Positions 7,996 through 54,172 of a DNA stretch of 57,933 nt are shown one piece after another. Where the stretch lies: contig MHGQ01000049.1 in the NCBI GenBank assembly GCA_001805645.1, positions 6,283-64,215 on the forward strand, read 5' to 3'. Each line of letters opens with the position of its first letter. Position 1 is the stretch's first letter. The DNA comes from Omnitrophica WOR_2 bacterium RIFCSPHIGHO2_02_FULL_50_17. Its GTDB lineage: Bacteria > Omnitrophota > Gorgyraeia > Zapsychrales > Zapsychraceae. Under the pieces are notes generated by a model, which saw only the letters and a program-made list of their open reading frames with translations, had not been told where the DNA came from and ran no database searches. Both the position numbers and the translations under genes were made by a program.

Positions 7996-9213
7996 TTATG
8001 GCGACCTCAAGGTCTTAATCATATCAAACATCGGCAAAAGCATCGAGGCCATGATAAACCCCACGACAGCCCCCAGAATAACCAGCAGGATCGGCTCGAT
8101 AAGCGTCGTCAATTTGCGCACCGAGAATTTTATGGAAGTATCATACAGATCGGCCACCTTATTCAACATATAACCCAATCTCCCCGTTTCCTCTCCGACA
8201 GCAATCATCTGGACGGCATCCGGAGGGAATTCTTCGCTGACTTTGAGGGGTTCGGCAATTCTGTCGCCACGCTCAACGCCCTCGCGCACATTCCGGACGG
8301 CCTGGCCGATAATCTCGTTATTCACCACATCGCGGACAATGTCCAGAGACTGTAAGATAGGAACGCCGCTTTCGACAAGGGTCGCCAGGGTACGGCTGAA
8401 ACGGGAAATGATCACCTTGCGCACCAAAGGCCCGACCACCGGCACGTCTAGCTGCAGACGATCAAACCACAACCGTCCCATTTTTGTCTGAACATATTTA
8501 CGCATGCCAAAGATACCTAAGCCGAGTCCCAGCACAACAAGATACCATGCCTTTTTTAACCCCACGCCGAATTCATAGACAATAATGGTCGGCACGGGCA
8601 GAGACACGTTGCTCTCTTTGAAAATCTCCACGAACTGCGGGATGACAAATGTTACGATTAATATTATAACAAGAAGTCCCGCGGAAAGTAATATCATCGG
8701 ATAAAAAAAAGCACCCTGGATTTTCTGCCTTAGCTCCTCCTGTTGCTCGACATAAACCGCCAGGCGGCTTAACACCAAATTCAGTTTACCGCTTGTCTCG
8801 CCGGCCTTAACCGTATGGATAAAAACCTTAGGAAAAACACGCGCATGTTTCGCCAGGGCATCGGAGAAAGAGGACCCGGCCTCGACCGATCGGCCGACAT
8901 CCTCAATAATCCTTTTCAGCTTTTTGTTCTCGGTCTGCTGGGAGATTGTCCGCAGACTGCTGATAATCGTCAGACCCGACTCAATCATGTTTGCAAGCTG
9001 GATATTAAAAAAAATAATATCTTCAGACCGTATCCTCCTTAAGCGGCTGCCGATACCCTCCAGATTAATTCCCGGGATAGCCTCCCGAATCTGAATGGGC
9101 ATATAACCCATCTTCCGCAGTTTATCGGCCACCTCGGCCGGCGAGAGGGCGTCCAAAGTCCCCTGGACAAGCTTGCCGTTTTCGTCCCTTGCTTTGTAGA
9201 GATATGTGGACAT
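7996..9213 (-). CDS. pilC: Type IV pilus inner-membrane platform protein PilC/GspF
   Basis: MSTYLYKARDENG start at 9213 (the ORF track extension to 9297 is translated repeat); GETSGKL and GEETGRL F-domain motifs. Confidence 0.95.
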   Translation of the reverse strand: MSTYLYKARDENGKLVQGTLDALSPAEVADKLRKMGYMPIQIREAIPGINLEGIGSRLRRIRSEDIIFFNIQLANMIESGLTIISSLRTISQQTENKKLKRIIEDVGRSVEAGSSFSDALAKHARVFPKVFIHTVKAGETSGKLNLVLSRLAVYVEQQEELRQKIQGAFFYPMILLSAGLLVIILIVTFVIPQFVEIFKESNVSLPVPTIIVYEFGVGLKKAWYLVVLGLGLGIFGMRKYVQTKMGRLWFDRLQLDVPVVGPLVRKVIISRFSRTLATLVESGVPILQSLDIVRDVVNNEIIGQAVRNVREGVERGDRIAEPLKVSEEFPPDAVQMIAVGEETGRLGYMLNKVADLYDTSIKFSVRKLTTLIEPILLVILGAVVGFIMASMLLPMFDMIKTLRSP

Positions 9214-9297
9214 AGAAACTAAAGAACTAAGAAACTCAGAAACTAAAGAACTAAGAAACTCAGAAACCGAAAAATGAAAAACCAGAGAACTCAACAA
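9212..9297. repeat. Downstream arm of 8-nt periodic repeats (AGAAACTA/AAGAACTA/AGAAACTC)
   Basis: Perfect 24-nt tandem AGAAACTAAAGAACTAAGAAACTC at 9214-9237 and 9238-9261, then degenerate units. Confidence 0.95.
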
Positions 9298-9681
9298 CTA
9301 TCCTTCAGCCATTTCTTTCTTCCTCACACTGGAACAAAAGGCCTTCAATTGTCGGACTAAATTATCCGCTCTTTTCAGATATCCCTCATGCTTTCCTTCA
9401 TCAATATAGTGATCATCTAACGCACAATCCAGACACGCCACAACTTCATTGACGGAAGTTAAAGAATTATTCAAAAAGCGACTGAAATCCTTGTCTGAAT
9501 ATCGGTCAGAACCTTCGGCAATATTGAGGAGCACAGAATCAAGGGCCCTCCACAATTGCGAACTCAGCGCATATTGTTCTTCTTTGGGAAATATCTTTTT
9601 GGTCAACGTCTTTAAATCCTTACGAAACTCCCTTGCATCTTTATAAACCGGAAATTCCCGAAATCGAAAAATATTGCTCAT
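9298..9681 (-). CDS. Four helix bundle protein (23S rRNA IVP/Avd-like fold)
   Basis: 127 aa; FREFPVYKDA, FPKEEQYALSSQLWRALDSVLLNIAEG, FSRFLNNSLTSVNEV family motifs. Confidence 0.93.
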   Translation of the reverse strand: MSNIFRFREFPVYKDAREFRKDLKTLTKKIFPKEEQYALSSQLWRALDSVLLNIAEGSDRYSDKDFSRFLNNSLTSVNEVVACLDCALDDHYIDEGKHEGYLKRADNLVRQLKAFCSSVRKKEMAEG

Positions 9682-9740
9682 CTGCTTTTCTGTTTCCCGT
9701 TTTTCAGTTCTTCGGTTCTTCAGTTTCTCAATCTTTCTAT
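9682..9740. repeat. Upstream arm of 8-nt periodic repeats, inverted relative to 9212-9297
   Basis: Minus strand reads ATAGAAAGATTGAGAAACTGAAGAACCGAAGAACTGAAAAACGGGAAACAGAAAAGCAG. Confidence 0.9.
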
Positions 9741-11356
9741 TCCTCCTGCGTCACGCGCAGGACTTCCTCCTGGGATGTGAGCTTCTGCGTGACCTTCTCC
9801 AGGCCGTCCTCGCGCAGCGTCTTCATCCCCGCCTTGATCGCGGCCTTGCGGATCTCCTCGGACGAAGACTTCTGTGTAATAAGCTGCCGGATGTCCTCAT
9901 TAAGAATCATCAACTCATAGATCCCCATCCGCCCTTTATAGCCCGTATTCAGGCACGCCTTGCATCCCTTGCCTTCGCAGCCTTTACAAAAAAGCCTGAC
10001 CAGCCTCTGGGCAATCACGCCAATCACAGACGAGGAGATAAGATAAGGTTCAATCCCCATATCCAACAGCCGCGTGACGGCCCCGGGGGCGTCATTGGTA
10101 TGGAGTGTGGCAAATACCAAATGCCCTGTTAAAGCGGCCTGAATAGCGATCTCGGCCGTCTCCAGGTCTCTGATCTCGCCGACCATAATGATATCGGGGT
10201 CCTGTCTTAAAACAGAGCGCAGGCCTTTGGCAAATGTCAAATCCGCCTGGAGGTTCACCTGAATCTGACGGATGCCGTGCAAACGATACTCCACCGGGTC
10301 CTCGATCGTGATAATATTTTTCTCAGGCGTATTTAAAATGTTCAAGGAGGCATAAAGCGTTGTTGTCTTTCCCGAACCCGTCGGGCCCGTGACCAGAATA
10401 ATCCCGTGCGCCTGCTTAACGAGCTTCCGGTAGTGAGTCAGAGTCTCCCGGGCAAACCCCAGTTGCTCCAGCCCCAAAACCGCGCTGGTCGCATCCAAAA
10501 GCCGCATGACGACATTCTCCCCGTAAATGGTGGGGACACACGAGATGCGCAGGTCGATCTGTCTGTTTTCCATCTTCATGTGAAACCGGCCGTCCTGGGG
10601 CCTGCGGCGCTCGGCGATATCCAGGTTGGCCAGGACCTTGATGCGGGAAATGATCGCGGATTGAAAATGCTTCGGAGGCGACTCTTTCTCGTAAAGGACT
10701 CCGTCAATGCGGAAACGTATCGCAAGGCTCTCCTCCTGCGGCTCGACATGAATATCCGAGGCGCCTTCCCTGACAGCCTCCATCACCATGATATTGACGA
10801 GGCGCACCACGGGGGGTTCATCGGCGATACCTGCAAGACGCTTGAGCTCGACCTCTTCGCCGTCCTTGATGCCCAATTTGTGTTCATCCAACCCCTTAAT
10901 CACCTCTTCCATGCTGCCCCGCACCCCGTAGTATTCATCGAGGGCCTTCTTGATTTCCGCCTCCGTGGAGACGGCCGGCTCGACAGTCAACCCCGTATTC
11001 ATCCTCACCTCATCCAGGGCAAAAATATTCATAGGATCCGCCATCGCGCATGTAACATTCCTGCCGATCTTCAAGATGGGAATCAATTGGTATTTCCGTG
11101 CCAATACCTCCGGCACACAGTCAATGACCTTGGTGTCAATCAGATAATTGCTCAGCTCGATGCGCGGGATATCCATCTGCCTGGCCAGGAAGCTGACCAT
11201 ATCCTCTTCGCTGATGGCCCCCTTCTCAACCAAAACTTTTCTCAAAGGCCTGCCTGTCTTCCTCTCTTCTTCCTGGGCCTCCTGCCATACCTTTGAGGTA
11301 ATCACCCCCTGCTCCAGCAGCCATTCCCCTAAAGATTTTTTCTCTCGTCGTGGCAT
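9737..11356 (-). CDS. pilB: PilB/GspE assembly ATPase
   Basis: MshEN-like N-terminus, ASDIHVEP, Walker A GPTGSGKTTT, TIEDPVE, LRQDPDIIMVGEIRD, TGHLVFATLHTN, CxxC pairs. Confidence 0.95.
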   Translation of the reverse strand: MPRREKKSLGEWLLEQGVITSKVWQEAQEEERKTGRPLRKVLVEKGAISEEDMVSFLARQMDIPRIELSNYLIDTKVIDCVPEVLARKYQLIPILKIGRNVTCAMADPMNIFALDEVRMNTGLTVEPAVSTEAEIKKALDEYYGVRGSMEEVIKGLDEHKLGIKDGEEVELKRLAGIADEPPVVRLVNIMVMEAVREGASDIHVEPQEESLAIRFRIDGVLYEKESPPKHFQSAIISRIKVLANLDIAERRRPQDGRFHMKMENRQIDLRISCVPTIYGENVVMRLLDATSAVLGLEQLGFARETLTHYRKLVKQAHGIILVTGPTGSGKTTTLYASLNILNTPEKNIITIEDPVEYRLHGIRQIQVNLQADLTFAKGLRSVLRQDPDIIMVGEIRDLETAEIAIQAALTGHLVFATLHTNDAPGAVTRLLDMGIEPYLISSSVIGVIAQRLVRLFCKGCEGKGCKACLNTGYKGRMGIYELMILNEDIRQLITQKSSSEEIRKAAIKAGMKTLREDGLEKVTQKLTSQEEVLRVTQEE

Positions 11357-39131: not shown

Positions 39132-39167
39132 AAAAAGGGAAACAGCGCATGCGCTGTTTCCCTTTTT
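39132..39167 (-). terminator. Rho-independent terminator after gap (potentially bidirectional)
   Basis: Perfect 36-bp palindrome AAAAAGGGAAACAGCGCATGCGCTGTTTCCCTTTTT, giving U tracts on both strands. Confidence 0.85.
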
Positions 39168-48904: not shown

Positions 48905-50019
48905 GAAATCTTTTCCACCCTTTCTAAGACATCTTCAACCGTTATCTGCCGTAAACAGCTTATGTGTTCACAACTCGCCTTTCGAAACTGCCGGTAACAC
49001 GGCCGGCAGACTATGTCTTTCTTTATAACTATATGATTTCCTAACGGATACGGGCCGTATACCCTCTCATCCACAGGGCCAAAAATGGAAACCGTCTTTG
49101 CCCCCACCGCCACGGCCACATGCAGAGGCCCGCCGTCATTGGTGACAACCAGGGAACACCTTTGCATTAAAGCGGCGAATTGGCCCAGGGAAGTCTTCCC
49201 GCAAGTCTCAATCGGGCGGTTCTGCATCAATTGTGCTGTTTTCTCGCAAAGATCAAGCTCAACCAAGCCACCCATCAGTATAATAGTGGCTGATTTTTTT
49301 TCAACCAATTTATCAGCTAATTTTGCAAAGCATTCCGCCGGCCAGCGTTTATAGCCGGCATCCTTTCCCCAGCTCTCCCCCCCGCCTGGGATAAGGCCAA
49401 TCACCGGCCAGCCTGCCCCGCCAGCCTGCCCCGCCAACGGCGGGGCAGGCTGGCGGACGGAGATACGGTTTTCTTCCAAAAATTCGGCGGCCCACTGGAT
49501 ATCTTCCGGAATTAAAGGAAACTCCATGTCCCTGCTCTGGGCCGGCACGCCGAAGGCGGCCAGAAGATCCAGGTAATACTCCGCCACATGCCTGTCTTCG
49601 TAGCCTGCCAGAGGAATTCTTTGAGTCAGAAAAATACCGCGGCCTTTATAGTCGTATCCTATCCGGCGGGGAATCCCGGCCGCGAAAGCAAGAAAACTCA
49701 TAAAACTGTTCAAGGAAACATCCAAAACCATATCAAACCGCTCGCCCCTGATGTCCTGAATCAACCGCCGGACAGCTTTGAGGTATTGCCAGGCCGATTT
49801 CTGGCGCAGGGTCTCTAACTCATCGCGTTCATAAATAAAAATCCGGCTGATTTTAGAATTGTGCTCCAAAAGAGGAATCGTCCGGCGGTTGCACAAATAC
49901 CCAATAAAGATATCCGGATACGCCGCCTTCAAATTATTGATCAAAGGTGTTGTAAAAAGGACATCTCCGATGCCGAAAATGTTGATGAGGAGAATCCTTT
50001 GAGGAGGATTAAGGCGCAT
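48901..50019 (-). CDS. GT9 heptosyltransferase (WaaF-like)
   Basis: GIGDVLFTTP, KRWP, VTNDGGPLHVAVA, SIFGP. Confidence 0.92.
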   Translation of the reverse strand: MRLNPPQRILLINIFGIGDVLFTTPLINNLKAAYPDIFIGYLCNRRTIPLLEHNSKISRIFIYERDELETLRQKSAWQYLKAVRRLIQDIRGERFDMVLDVSLNSFMSFLAFAAGIPRRIGYDYKGRGIFLTQRIPLAGYEDRHVAEYYLDLLAAFGVPAQSRDMEFPLIPEDIQWAAEFLEENRISVRQPAPPLAGQAGGAGWPVIGLIPGGGESWGKDAGYKRWPAECFAKLADKLVEKKSATIILMGGLVELDLCEKTAQLMQNRPIETCGKTSLGQFAALMQRCSLVVTNDGGPLHVAVAVGAKTVSIFGPVDERVYGPYPLGNHIVIKKDIVCRPCYRQFRKASCEHISCLRQITVEDVLERVEKIS

Positions 50020-51054: not shown

Positions 51055-52104
51055 TTATTGTTCCGAACGATTCTTTTGTTTTAAAAAAGCGGCCAAATTT
51101 TTGACGTCTTGTGACAAATGTTTAGGACAAATCAAAAGGGCGTCAGAGGTATCAATAACGACCAGATCGTTTAAACCAATGGCGGCGACAAGACGTTGAT
51201 GGGCCCAAATCAGCGTGTCCCGGCAATCTAGGGAGACGACGTTGCCCCGCATTGTGTTACCTGCTTTGTCTTTAGGTAGAATTTCAAAAAGCGCCTCCCA
51301 GCTTCCCAAATCCGACCAGCCGATGCCGGCGGCTGAAACCGCCACAACATTAGAAGCCTTCTCTAATATACCGTAATCAACCGAGATGTTTGGCAGGCGA
51401 TTCCAAATCTTCTGGATAGGATCCTGACGATCCGCCCCCCCGACGTCGGCATAAATGGAAGGCAGATATTTCTTGAAGGCACGCAGGATAACTTCTGCCT
51501 TCCATACGAACATGCCGCTGTTCCACAGGTAACCCCCATTTTTCAAAAATTGTTTGGCCTTGACAAAATTCGGCTTCTCGATAAATTTTTCGACGTGTAA
51601 AACATTCTTGTCCTGTTTGGTTTTCAAATAGCCGTAGCCGGTTTCGGCGCGCGCGGGAACGATTCCGAAAGTAACGAGATACTCCTGCTGGGCCAGGTCA
51701 ACCGCTTTTTCCAGAAGCCGCAAAAATTTCGTGCGGTTGGCAATGAGGTGATCCGACGGCAAGACAACCATGACCGCGTGGGGATTCACGGCGTGGATGC
51801 GCGCCGCGGCCCAACCAATCGCCGGCGCTGTATTCTTCGCGCTGGGTTCCCACAATACCTGGGAGGCCCGCACCCCGAACCCGGCTGTATGACGTTTGAT
51901 TTCTTTCCGGTAGCGGCGGTTGGCGACAATCCAGATGTTTCCCGCAGGCACTTTCGGCGCGATGCGGCGGATCGTCTGGCACAGCAGGCTTTCTTTGCCG
52001 ACGAGATTCAGAAACTGCTTGGGCCGGCTCTGGCGGCTGGCCGGCCAGAACCGCGTGCCGGAACCACCGGCCAGGATGACGGCGTGTAAATTATTTATAC
52101 CCAT
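51055..52104 (-). CDS. manC: Mannose-1-phosphate guanylyltransferase
   Basis: LAGGSGTRFWP.SR..PKQF, EP..KNTAPAI, LPSDH, ETGYGY, FIEKP, WNSGMF, WSDLGSW. Confidence 0.95.
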   Translation of the reverse strand: MGINNLHAVILAGGSGTRFWPASRQSRPKQFLNLVGKESLLCQTIRRIAPKVPAGNIWIVANRRYRKEIKRHTAGFGVRASQVLWEPSAKNTAPAIGWAAARIHAVNPHAVMVVLPSDHLIANRTKFLRLLEKAVDLAQQEYLVTFGIVPARAETGYGYLKTKQDKNVLHVEKFIEKPNFVKAKQFLKNGGYLWNSGMFVWKAEVILRAFKKYLPSIYADVGGADRQDPIQKIWNRLPNISVDYGILEKASNVVAVSAAGIGWSDLGSWEALFEILPKDKAGNTMRGNVVSLDCRDTLIWAHQRLVAAIGLNDLVVIDTSDALLICPKHLSQDVKNLAAFLKQKNRSEQ

Positions 52105-52224
52105 TGTTTCCCAAAAAGGTTAAAAAAAGTTATGGGATGTTGGAAAAGGTTTCAAAAAGATTTGGGGGTCAAACCTGTTTCAACTTATTTCAACCTCTTC
52201 CAACATTTTTCAACCTTAAACAAT
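52103..52224. repeat. Intergenic hairpin of 10-nt periodic repeats (AAGGTTGAAA-like)
   Basis: Arms 52116-52164 and 52170-52217 with a 5-nt loop; outer 7-bp IR ATTGTTT/AAACAAT. Confidence 0.85.
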
Positions 52225-53058
52225 TTTCTCTTTCACTCTTCTTCCCGTCTTATACCTGACTCTAAACCATCTGGCCGGAAACCACCAATATTTCTGCTTG
52301 ATATTTTGCCAGTCCTGTTGGCTCAATGGATGCGCTTGGATCTTCGGCTCCATAACCTTCGGATGGGTACCGAAATAGACAGGGAACCGGTTGAGGTCGC
52401 CGTAGAAATATTCTTCCCGCCCCGCATCCCCATTTAAAGCCACAAAACCGATCGCCTCGGCATTAGCCCGCCGCTGGGCCATCACATCCTGCGGCTGCAC
52501 CCACCCGTAATGATAGACAAAACACCCTGTGTTTTTCCGGCGCAAAGGCTGCCCATCCTTACGTCTAAAGCCAAAGGCATCGCCGAAGGATTCGATTTGA
52601 CCGTTATTGCGGATGATACGGTCCTGCTTCTGATACCAGCCGCTGTCAATCCTGTAACGAAAATAACTGCCATAAAAATGCAGCCATTGAAACCGCAGGG
52701 CATCCACTTGAGAGTCGTCTTTGTAACGCCGCATCGTATTTCTTAACTTATCCCTATCATCCTCGTGAATCACCTCATCGGACTGAAGATAAAAAGCCCA
52801 GTCGCCGGTGCACGCTGCCAGCGCCAGGTTCGTCTGATGCGAAAGCATTTCGGATTTTTGGGACATATCCCAGGTATTCTGGATAATCCGTATTTTATCG
52901 CTCTTTATGCCGGCAATCAAATCGGCCGTGCCGTCCTCGCAGTCCCCGATGTTGACGACAAATTCATCGCAGACCGGCAAAACCGACCGGATGGATTCCG
53001 AAACCGGATAATTATATTTAACCGCGTTGCGGATGATGGTAAAACCGCTGATTTTCAT
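52216..53058 (-). CDS. GT2-like glycosyltransferase
   Basis: MKISGFTIIRN start (ORF track 53082), DGT, WAFYLQSDE, YHYGWV. Confidence 0.88.
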   Translation of the reverse strand: MKISGFTIIRNAVKYNYPVSESIRSVLPVCDEFVVNIGDCEDGTADLIAGIKSDKIRIIQNTWDMSQKSEMLSHQTNLALAACTGDWAFYLQSDEVIHEDDRDKLRNTMRRYKDDSQVDALRFQWLHFYGSYFRYRIDSGWYQKQDRIIRNNGQIESFGDAFGFRRKDGQPLRRKNTGCFVYHYGWVQPQDVMAQRRANAEAIGFVALNGDAGREEYFYGDLNRFPVYFGTHPKVMEPKIQAHPLSQQDWQNIKQKYWWFPARWFRVRYKTGRRVKEKIV

Positions 53059-54172
53059 AAGTAACTTTACAAACCTCCTCATAAATTTTCAGTGTCTCCC
53101 GGGCTGTCTTAAGATTGTCGAATTCTTCGGCGCGTTTCAGCGCCTTCTGCCGCAGCCGATGTTTGAGGCCGTCGTCCTGAATAATTCTGCCAATCGCCTC
53201 GGCAATTTCCTGGCTGTTCGACGGATCAACCAGCAGCGCCGCCTCCGCCGCGAGCTCGCGGCACGAGGAAGCATTGGAGGTCACAACCGCGGCGCCGCAA
53301 CTAAAGGCCTCGACGATAGGATAGCCGAACCCCTCATAAAAGGAAGGAAAGACAAAAACCTCGGCTAAGTTATAAAAAGCGCGCAAATCATCATTGGTCA
53401 CGAACCCTAAGAAGACAACCTCTTCTTTTATCTTAAGCCTCTCAATCAAATCCGCCATATCTCCTGTTTTCCATCCGTCCATACCAATCACGACCAATTT
53501 CCCACGAAAAATCCTTTTCCCCCTTAATTGCGCAAAGGCCTCCAGAAGCCCTTTTAGATTCTTGCGCGGCTCAATAGTCCCGACAAAAAGAATAAAAGGA
53601 TTCTCAATTCCCTTAAACCGGACAGCTTCCTGAGCGAGCCTCATTTGCCGCTCATCAACAGGATAAAAGATATTCTTATCTGTCCCCTGATGGATATAGC
53701 AGGTTTTCTCACGGTCAATCGTAAAATATTTATGCAGGTCTTCCTGCGTATTTTGGGAGCTGCAGATAATCTTGGATGCCCGGCGAATAAAAGACTGAAA
53801 CTGCCTCTCTGTCAAATCAACAGTTTCAGGAGTGTGGCTCTGGGGGTAAGCCTTATATATTAAATCATGAACGGTTACAATGACCTTCGCGCGGCTTACC
53901 TCAATGACCTCAGGGCTGGGCGCATGATAAATGTCAACAGCCGGCAACATTTTATCCACGCCTTTTCTGAAGAAATCGAACCGAAGAAAGAAATTTCCTG
54001 CCTCACTCAAAGGGATTCTTCTTTTAACCTCCTCGTACCCCCTTGTCGTATAAAGGGAATACCGGTTGGCGCGGTCAATCTTCGCAAGAGAGGCAACGAG
54101 GCTGGATGCATATCGCCCGATTCCTGTGAATTGCTTCTTAGAAAACGAACGGCAGTTGATAGCGATATGCAT
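53018..54172 (-). CDS. GT4 (group 1) glycosyltransferase
   Basis: TGIGRY, TVHDL, VGTIEPRKN, FPSFYEGFGYPIVEA. Confidence 0.93.
   Translation of the reverse strand: MHIAINCRSFSKKQFTGIGRYASSLVASLAKIDRANRYSLYTTRGYEEVKRRIPLSEAGNFFLRFDFFRKGVDKMLPAVDIYHAPSPEVIEVSRAKVIVTVHDLIYKAYPQSHTPETVDLTERQFQSFIRRASKIICSSQNTQEDLHKYFTIDREKTCYIHQGTDKNIFYPVDERQMRLAQEAVRFKGIENPFILFVGTIEPRKNLKGLLEAFAQLRGKRIFRGKLVVIGMDGWKTGDMADLIERLKIKEEVVFLGFVTNDDLRAFYNLAEVFVFPSFYEGFGYPIVEAFSCGAAVVTSNASSCRELAAEAALLVDPSNSQEIAEAIGRIIQDDGLKHRLRQKALKRAEEFDNLKTARETLKIYEEVCKVTYENQRFYHHPQRG

Follow-up and report, generated by a model that had tools for sequence, protein, structure and literature searches.

A 10-nt-unit hairpin between a GT2-like gene and manC is likely a copy of a dispersed palindromic repeat family in Omnitrophota

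The 57,933-nt stretch of Omnitrophica WOR_2 bacterium RIFCSPHIGHO2_02_FULL_50_17 analysed here (contig MHGQ01000049.1; hereafter the window) contains a lipopolysaccharide (LPS) gene cluster in which the stop codon of a gene for a glycosyltransferase family 2 (GT2)-like protein is separated from the start of manC, encoding mannose-1-phosphate guanylyltransferase, by a gap of 111 nt that holds no open reading frame (ORF). The gap is taken up by a hairpin whose two arms are built of 10-nt tandem units. Our comparisons make it likely that this hairpin is a diverged copy of a dispersed palindromic repeat family with fast turnover, tolerated at the junction because it would fold out of the mRNA. They place copies of the family at many unrelated gene junctions, where those in same-strand pairs nearly always fill the space from stop to start codon. 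All coordinates are those of the whole stretch; all genes of the region lie on the minus strand (-), on which gene order is read.

Directly after the GT2-like stop codon the sense strand reads GGTTGAAAAA TGTTGGAAGA GGTTGAAATA AGTTGAAACA GGTTTG (52215-52170). This purine-rich 5' arm (52170-52215, -), delimited by its sequence and periodicity, consists of about five 10-nt units, RGTTGRAA plus two variable bases, and shares 91% identity over 45 nt with the orthologous arm of L012 (L numbers denote the loci compared). An apical loop ACCCC (52165-52169, -), on which length differences between relatives are centred, is placed by the minimum free energy (MFE) structure between this arm and a pyrimidine-rich (C/T) 3' arm (52110-52164, -) of complement units TTYCAAC / AACYTTTT. 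The arms form an inverted repeat of 23 nt with 83% complementarity, and the 3' arm has a 10-nt bulge and a one-unit offset relative to the 5' arm. In the MFE structure the base is closed by pairing of ATTGTTT (52218-52224, -) with AAACAAT (52103-52109, -). The former takes in the two final codons of the GT2-like gene (Ile-Val) together with the T of the TAA stop, and ATTGTT, being coding sequence, is also kept in relatives that lack the hairpin; the latter overlaps the A and T of the manC ATG (52104-52102) and is conserved in L011 and at 6 of its 7 positions in L012. A first-pass annotation of this DNA had described the periodic arms with their 5-nt loop, the lack of a passenger gene and the outer pair reaching from the last codons to the AT of the manC ATG, and all of these are found in the sequence as described.

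Periodicity and complementarity of the hairpin are both above chance. Tandem Repeats Finder reports periods of 10 and 20 in both arms. The lag-10 autocorrelation is 0.66 in the 5' arm, a value that none of 5000 shuffles reached, and 0.49 in the 3' arm (reached by 20 of 5000), and the region gives the highest values in the window. Scored against each other as an inverted repeat the arms reach 17, versus 9.1 +/- 1.9 in shuffles (5 of 2000 reach it). A stem, which the first-pass annotation had proposed to check by RNA folding, is indeed predicted: 52095-52232 (-) folds at -37.4 kcal/mol (z = -2.75; one of 200 dinucleotide shuffles was as stable), with helices of 9-15 bp and about 37 pairs in total. 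The stem is rich in A-U and G-U pairs, G-C pairs making up 10/46. Ten near-identical contigs from the same population show a single nucleotide polymorphism, located in an unpaired bulge. Elsewhere in the 57.9-kb window, which contains no tRNA or tmRNA gene, the unit motif shows no enrichment, and an Rfam scan gave no match at the gathering score and, at permissive E-values, only sub-threshold generic long hairpins.

The family was found by scanning species-representative genomes for four phased GTTRNAA units, and the figures below refer to the matches listed. The scan also returned many unrelated 10-nt tandem repeats, and a relaxed family scan of all loci examined added copies between the glycosyltransferase family 4 (GT4) gene and the GT2-like gene. 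Family members have the consensus AAGGTTAGAAAAGGTTGnAAGAGGTT ... AACnTTTTTCAACnTTTTCTAACCTT and the inverted terminal repeats AAGGTTAGAAAA...TTTTCTAACCTT, and are non-coding, imperfect palindromes of about 100-160 nt with arms that are runs of 10-nt units. At least about 10 distinct loci of Omnitrophota context (about 15 copies with orthologues), in at least six genomes or contigs, carry the element, and none of the copies carries an ORF. Two complete copies flank an archease gene of Omnitrophica WOR_2 RIFCSPHIGHO2_01_FULL_52_10 (L116a, L116b) and another copy lies in the same organism between a kinase-like ORF and a response-regulator gene (L152). Others follow menB-like genes (L159, L179), occupy a same-strand junction (L187) or lie between convergent genes (L185 and L168, a T run following the L168 copy), and further copies sit at the GT4/GT2 junction (L011, L012, L018, L023). 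Same-strand junctions are filled nearly end to end at the two LPS-cluster junctions and in L116a, L116b, L152, L159/L179 and L187. Non-orthologous copies are 78-92% identical over 90-138 nt and score 60-221 against one another, compared with a maximum of 27 for shuffled partners; the copies of L116a, L152 and L185, at three unrelated loci and in both orientations, are 90-92% identical to each other. The window copy matches the family profile at 52115-52217 (-; nhmmer E 5.6e-18), with a score of 64.9 on the minus strand versus 44.9 on the plus strand.

At L116 (3000-3233), L152 (665-900) and L185 (2489-2724) the 10-nt hairpin is nested in outer arms of a unit of about 7 nt (CGAAR/YTTCG), and these nested copies look like a hairpin element inserted into the apex of another. 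Periodic arrays were also observed in other settings. A GTT-type 10-nt hairpin lies apparently in frame within a variable loop of a P-type ATPase gene (L172, about 680-800) and recalls the Rickettsia palindromic elements, which insert into coding sequence. In Oscillatoriales cyanobacteria (L105, L156, L171) GTTGGAAAAN 10-nt arrays abut a -10-like box (TACAAT, TATAAT or TATAGT); each lies upstream of a gene, and they resemble phased arrays of the promoter-upstream kind, distinct from the hairpins. In Bacteroidales (L106, L111, L175) long GGAGTTAGAG-type 10-nt arrays are followed by a complementary array (CTCTAACTCC), and periodic-arm hairpins may also be present in Bacteroidota.

The GT2-like/manC junction was compared across 80 metagenome loci with an alignment to the GT2-like protein, and all stop-to-ATG intervals were extracted. 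L011, with a ManC 95% identical to that of the window, has the same 111-nt element with few substitutions, and in L012 (ManC 71% identical) the units are of the same type and the centre is longer, giving 142 nt. L021 retains the 5' arm alone (48 nt), abutting the ATG, and L017 has a different purine-rich array with no partner arm. Hairpins of other sequence occupy the interval in further loci, built of GGGNCAAG units in L014 and L022, of GATACGA units in L018, L020 and L023, and of GGGGAAC-type units of 8-9 nt, preceded by a Cys-rich 135-aa ORF, in L056; L036 and L087 have non-periodic long inverted repeats. These sister hairpins with units of 7 nt (L018/L020/L023), 8 nt (L014) and 9 nt (L056) are unrelated, and among the loci examined this junction is the only place with arms of the heptamer (GATACGR) or octamer (CAAGGGNCAAGG) type, the one further match (L052) being coding sequence. 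In related strains from recent groundwater metagenomes exactly this interval is replaced by inserts of 35-100 nt, and a contig of run X14 reads TAA-GGTTGAAAAATTTTTCAACC-TTTTTAAACCTCTGGAGAATA-ATG, a one-unit hairpin stub followed by a Shine-Dalgarno (SD) sequence. The first-pass annotation had suggested comparing relatives for an inserted gene; a gene of the PF05635 family, the passenger of the cassettes described below, is present at this junction in none of the 80 loci. At L033 the junction holds a small membrane ORF and a nucleotidyltransferase/HEPN-like pair, as labelled from their translations.

In more distant relatives the stop and start codons overlap, or the two genes are set apart by a spacer of 9-17 nt with a GGAG-type SD; from this arrangement in loci lacking the element we take tight coupling to be the ancestral state of the junction. 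In a rough neighbour-joining tree of the GT2-like and ManC proteins the window and L011 form one clade and the remaining loci another. Given this split, the RGTTGRAA element was probably ancestral at the junction, several lines having since replaced or trimmed it.

A second junction of the same cluster, between the GT4 and GT2-like genes, shows a presence/absence polymorphism of the element between relatives whose proteins are 95-97% identical. L011 carries about 100 nt of element here. In the window, only the joined ends of a family copy (TTGTAAAGTTACTT; 53059-53072, -) stand between the GAGGAGG of the GT4 gene and the GT2-like ATG: the junction reads GAGGAGGTT-TGTAA-AGTTACTT-ATG, and these 14 nt are identical to the two ends of the copy in L011 fused across a direct repeat, TAAAG. 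The segment 53059-53072 may be either the footprint of a deletion or an empty target, which in L011 would have undergone a 5-bp duplication. The element-free loci L014, L017 and L020 read GAGGAGGT|GTATG at this place. In L011, L012, L018 and L023 the first unit of the element supplies the stop codon of the GT4 gene; in the window the element is absent, and the GT4 ORF therefore runs about 17 codons further and overlaps the GT2-like gene. Orthologous copies in turn differ by segments centred on the apex, as seen for L159 versus L179, the window versus L012 and the X14 stub, which is the pattern that deletion or growth of a palindrome would be expected to leave. Taken together these comparisons show that within short evolutionary times copies come and go, lose length from the apex, become nested and are replaced.

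The strand on which the element folds was examined for seven family copies, of which those of the window, L011 and L012 are orthologous, leaving five independent junctions. In six of the seven the sense strand folds better by 6-24 kcal/mol, with the G-U pairs lying on the sense strand. Sense minus antisense energies are -8.5 kcal/mol in the window (8.5-9.5 in favour of sense depending on the stretch folded), -6.4 in L011, -10.7 in L012, -13.1 in L116b, -10.3 in L152 and -23.7 in L159, against +0.4 kcal/mol in L116a. In the stems of the window, L011 and L012 two pairs show two-sided compensatory changes, ten show one-sided changes to or from G-U, and five are broken. The asymmetry of folding and the pairing-preserving changes favour a role of the sense strand in single-stranded form, for which RNA would be the simplest reading, a single-stranded DNA intermediate being possible as well.

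These observations suggest how the element might be accommodated, the most economical reading being that a junction of this kind puts up with an insertion if it takes the shape of a looped-out hairpin. It would be co-transcribed with the glycosyltransferase/manC operon and in the mRNA would fold into a long hairpin rich in A-U and G-U pairs, looping the insert out. The GT2-like stop codon and the manC AUG would be brought together at the base of the hairpin, and insertion into a formerly tight, translationally coupled junction could thereby be tolerated. We infer that a ribosome terminating at the UAA would melt the base of the stem and free the manC start. Given the length of its helices and the number of its pairs, the stem would also be a plausible substrate of RNase III, like the intervening sequences (IVSs) of 23S rRNA and the Correia elements of Neisseria. 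The element itself would be mainly selfish or near-neutral insertional DNA, any effect on manC being modulatory and a side effect, and as the 'empty' form it would belong to a broader class of hairpins with periodic arms, in which some enclose a PF05635 gene.

Several points weigh against this account. The window copy is the most diverged member of the family, although it still scores 42-60 against every other copy (shuffle maximum 31), and the family profile finds only this single copy in the 57.9-kb window. RNAalifold gave no useful consensus structure for a 13-copy family alignment; the register of pairing varies among copies, as follows from their periodic arms, and for this reason a column-wise structure of the family is not to be had. 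That the element is mobile is argued from its distribution: no transposase or autonomous partner with shared termini was seen in the loci examined, no genome-wide search having been made, viral contigs scanned for the family terminus yielded 0 matches, and the TAAAG direct repeat flanking the GT4/GT2 copy of L011 has no evident counterpart common to other copies that would make a consistent target-site duplication. If the tree is right, the element has persisted at the manC junction in both clades, and this persistence, together with the pairing-preserving substitutions, could mean a selected local function and not neutrality. Lastly, co-transcription, folding in vivo, cleavage by RNase III and coupling are all steps that we infer.

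The window also contains a hairpin with a passenger. Between pilB (9737-11356) and pilC (ATG at 9213) an insert (9214-9736, -) extends from the pilB stop to the pilC ATG and holds, between complementary arms with a period of about 8 nt, an ORF (9298-9681) of 127 aa that matches PF05635, the '23S rRNA intervening-sequence protein' (E 1.5e-26). The insert folds at -144 kcal/mol on the sense strand versus -101 on the antisense strand, with 33 versus 10 G-U pairs. The first-pass annotation had likened the closure of the manC hairpin to that of this cassette, and the likeness holds, with exact stop-to-start closure in both. Homologues of the PF05635 protein are 65-82% identical over many unrelated metagenome contigs, including some named Nealsonbacteria and WOR-1, which suggests horizontal spread. 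Eight of nine PF05635 genes examined, a small and partly orthologous sample, lie within stop-to-start hairpins of short tandem units, of 8 nt in the window, L216, L218 and L222 and of 10 nt in L190, L225, L226 and L228. In L216 and L222 the ORF is flanked on either side by arms with an 8-nt period, L218 has a clear array 3' of it only, and the L219 gene has both arms upstream; the PF05635 genes of these four loci are all in same-strand junctions. In L190, a locus returned by the pattern scan, the order is ligA, an empty family-like hairpin (family profile E 1.6e-14), gatC, GTT-type arrays, the PF05635 ORF (E 4.4e-21) and a complementary array. The empty hairpin is again sense-favoured (-64.3 versus -45.3). 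L225 has GTT-type 10-nt units around a relative of this PF05635 ORF at the same gatC/gatA junction, and the arms of L226 and L228, which also enclose relatives of it, are TAGGGAnAAT units with a 10-nt period. The nearest named homologue of the L190-type PF05635 ORF is from Candidatus Uhrbacteria, and the genomes of L190, L225, L226 and L228 probably belong to the candidate phyla radiation (CPR). The L190 contig (CAZFGO010000012.1) bears the label 'uncultured Gammaproteobacteria', which is doubtful; the locus is A+T-rich with a ligA-gatC order. A class of short-tandem-unit hairpins, with or without a PF05635 gene, that fill operon junctions is thus real.

How the empty hairpin relates to these cassettes bears on the interpretation. 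It could be a non-autonomous partner of the PF05635 cassettes, the protein, an Avd-like four-helix bundle, acting in trans on periodic arms by binding, processing or spread; this would extend the explanation given above and does not compete with it, and we hold it as a possibility on the doubtful side. The enclosure of eight of the nine genes in such hairpins, the wide spread of the homologues and the L190 gene, whose GTT-type 10-nt arms lie one gene away from an empty family-like hairpin, speak in its favour, as does the resemblance of the outer CGAAR-type arms of L116a, L152 and L185 to the arms of 8-nt cassettes. However, no PF05635 gene lies inside any of the copies found of the Omnitrophota RGTTRNAA family, the 10-nt cassettes (including the GTT-type arms of L190 and L225) derive from a different, CPR-like lineage, the sole PF05635 gene of the window has arms of other period and sequence, the sample of cassettes has the limits already stated, and no catalytic activity of PF05635 proteins is known. 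The suggestion of the first-pass annotation that the manC hairpin is a passenger-less version of such a cassette is accordingly supported at the level of the class, by the enclosed genes and the empty copy near the L190 cassette, but not as decay from the pilB/pilC cassette of the window, since 10-nt RGTTRNAA units stand against 8-nt GAAAC-type units and the family has no ORF-bearing copy. We may go further and speculate, at rather long odds, that all these hairpins form a previously undescribed class of IVS-like selfish elements with arms of 7-10-nt units, some holding a PF05635 gene and some lacking one, which colonise mRNA stop-to-start junctions of Omnitrophota and CPR and are not confined to rRNA helices. 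The trans-acting partner that recognises the units would be the PF05635 protein, empty copies would be non-autonomous derivatives, and either the hairpin would hide the insertion from translational coupling or RNase III would remove the hairpin.

Other explanations concern the junction itself. Dedicated translational control, with the hairpin sequestering the region where manC is initiated and setting the level of manC relative to the upstream glycosyltransferases, was the inference of the first-pass annotation and would fit a 3' arm and outer pair that extend to the AUG, the lack of a strong SD before manC and the retention of the hairpin in L011 and L012 with pairing-preserving changes. Yet opening positions -18 to +10 costs 11.1 kcal/mol, compared with a median of 8.75 (sd 3.5) and ranking 16th among 50 starts of the window, an ordinary value on which we rejected unusual masking of the manC ribosome-binding site; the same element stands before an archease gene, a response-regulator gene, the GT2-like gene and the gene that follows menB, and close relatives have unrelated hairpins, half the element or none at the manC junction. 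Such control is therefore an unlikely explanation. The element could instead have been made in place, by slippage of a purine-rich leader array followed by inverted duplication through template switching. The lone 5' arm of L021 and the partnerless array of L017 look like steps on such a path, and slippage fits the differences in unit number and register and may well explain how copies grow and shrink. As the sole origin it is contradicted by the 78-92% identity at unrelated loci of different genomes and in both orientations, which leaves it viable for length change and improbable as the explanation of the hairpin. A role at transcript ends, as an intrinsic terminator or attenuator or as a 3'-end stabiliser of the upstream mRNA, is suggested by a long hairpin directly past a stop codon, by the copies between convergent genes in L185 and L168 with the T run of the latter, and by the X14 stub, which is a hairpin of 8-9 bp followed by TTTTT. 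The stem in the window, though, is A-U/G-U-rich and lacks a U tract on its 3' side, the gap contains no promoter-like site for manC itself, and the clear terminators of this genome look different, being G+C-rich stems with T runs (for example 39132-39167) in a sequence that also shows sigma-70-type promoters and GGAG ribosome-binding sites. A consensus scan found neither a terminator-like nor a promoter site in the gap, and both readings were rejected, including the simple terminator that the first-pass annotation had named as an outcome that would overturn its view; a role at the transcript end now seems very unlikely. Very unlikely too is an array of sites at the DNA level, in which phased 10-bp units serve as duplex protein-binding sites or as curved DNA: the period is near the helical repeat of B-DNA, A-tracts are phased, the units are conserved in sequence beyond what pairing alone would ask for, and similar GTTxxAA arrays abut -10 boxes in cyanobacteria, but the 7-, 8- and 9-nt periods of the sister hairpins are off the helical repeat, duplex binding does not explain a folding asymmetry between strands, and the element lies within an operon without a promoter. 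Our preferred reading thus stays that of a diverged copy of a dispersed repeat family that is tolerated by folding out of the mRNA.

The genes around the hairpin are conserved in the order NTP-transferase, aminotransferase, GT4, GT2-like and manC. The GT2-like gene (52216-53058, -; TAA stop at 52218-52216) encodes 280 aa ending in ...KEKIV*; gene callers place its start at this length, a 288-aa reading of the ORF being possible as well. The protein is 74-97% identical to those of relatives, with a conserved C-terminus, and its 'GT2' label is weak, both Pfam GT2 matches lying just under the gathering score. manC (51055-52104, -) is identified by matches to NTP_transferase (4.9e-44) and ManC_GMP_beta-helix (3.3e-17), and the homologues of its product bear Omnitrophica names. 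Further along, a heptosyltransferase (GT9) gene, which the gene caller of one assembly passed over, contains at 49418-49456 a perfect palindrome of 18 bp, G+C-rich (CCGCCAGCCTGCCCCGCC / GGCGGGGCAGGCTGGCGG), along with a 13-nt tandem repeat; L011 has a different sequence in this segment.

If our account is true, the 'weird hairpins' in operons of Omnitrophota and CPR are repeat copies that should be masked in annotation and not taken for riboswitches, terminators or regulators. The closure from stop to start suggests how an operon could absorb an insertion of 100-500 nt without losing translational coupling. It would likewise give a concrete setting to PF05635 / '23S rRNA IVS protein' / Avd-like proteins, a large family of obscure function for which a nucleic-acid-binding role would become testable on defined RNA or DNA ligands, since its genes lie inside tandem-unit hairpins and empty hairpins of the same build occur nearby. 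The manC junction also offers a natural series, from a full copy through a half copy, a one-unit stub and a remnant to unrelated hairpins, in which the growth, shrinkage and replacement of palindromes can be followed.

Our literature search, which was incomplete in coverage and leaves novelty unproven, returned nothing relevant on mRNA PF05635 cassettes or on palindromic repeats of Omnitrophota. Among known systems the closest in structure and function are ERIC (about 127 bp) and the Correia/NEMIS elements of Neisseria (about 104-157 bp). Like the present family they are dispersed imperfect palindromes of similar size (about 100-160 nt here) that occur in either orientation in transcribed intergenic regions and after stop codons and vary in presence between close strains. 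De Gregorio et al. reportedly found that RNase III cleaves Correia hairpins. The family shares several features of transposable elements of the miniature inverted-repeat type (MITEs) and of ERIC-like repeats: dispersed copies, a non-coding length below 300 bp with terminal inverted repeats, and presence/absence polymorphism. It differs in that its arms are 10-nt tandem units with several pairing registers and change in length by whole units or from the apex, in that no TA-type target duplication or IHF site was seen, in its host phylum, Omnitrophota, and in sharing its design with ORF-bearing PF05635 cassettes, no link to a transposase being known. ERIC and Correia MITEs are co-transcribed hairpins that alter the stability or processing of mRNA (PMC3184786). 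Repetitive extragenic palindromes (REPs) and their composites (BIME, and REPIN with RAYT transposases) resemble the family as extragenic palindromes that often lie in operons after stop codons and have proposed mRNA-stabilising roles. According to PMC3733652, REPs are G+C-rich sequences of 20-40 bp with a GTAG or CGTC tag, whereas the family is A+T-rich, three to five times longer and periodic. The window hairpin lacks the size, composition and tag and was rejected as a REP or REPIN, and no RAYT was seen beside the family copies examined. A repeat that forms intrastrand triplexes (PMC4666352) is likewise different, being a short G/C-rich motif.

The IVSs of 23S rRNA are also close. Those of Leptospira and Coxiella, with an S23p/PF05635 ORF, and those of Salmonella and Yersinia, without one, are loops of inserted sequence held out of a functional RNA by a stem, so that forms with and without the PF05635 ORF exist there as in the present class, and IVSs are regarded as selfish and horizontally acquired. 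Our hairpin has, in its predicted fold, the flanking inverted repeats that loop an insert out. We know of no IVS described with periodic tandem-unit arms, and IVSs sit in helices 25 or 45 of 23S rRNA, whereas the present hairpin lies between protein-coding genes. The Coxiella 23S IVS with its PF05635-type ORF is excised by RNase III (PMC4990558). In architecture the family also resembles the Foldback (FB) transposons of Drosophila and other eukaryotes; the likeness implies no homology, FB elements being kilobase-scale eukaryotic DNA transposons. Their long inverted arms consist of short tandem repeats, and a central passenger may be present or absent. As for translation, starts bridged by structure are known from the split ribosome-binding sites of T4 genes 25 and 38, from coupling through the unfolding of masking hairpins and from ribosome shunting in the cauliflower mosaic virus (CaMV) leader. 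There, as in the geometry proposed here, a stable hairpin joins distant elements, a start codon with either a stop codon or an SD, or is opened by the upstream terminating ribosome; those cases are single dedicated structures, whereas here the predicted geometry recurs across a repeat family.

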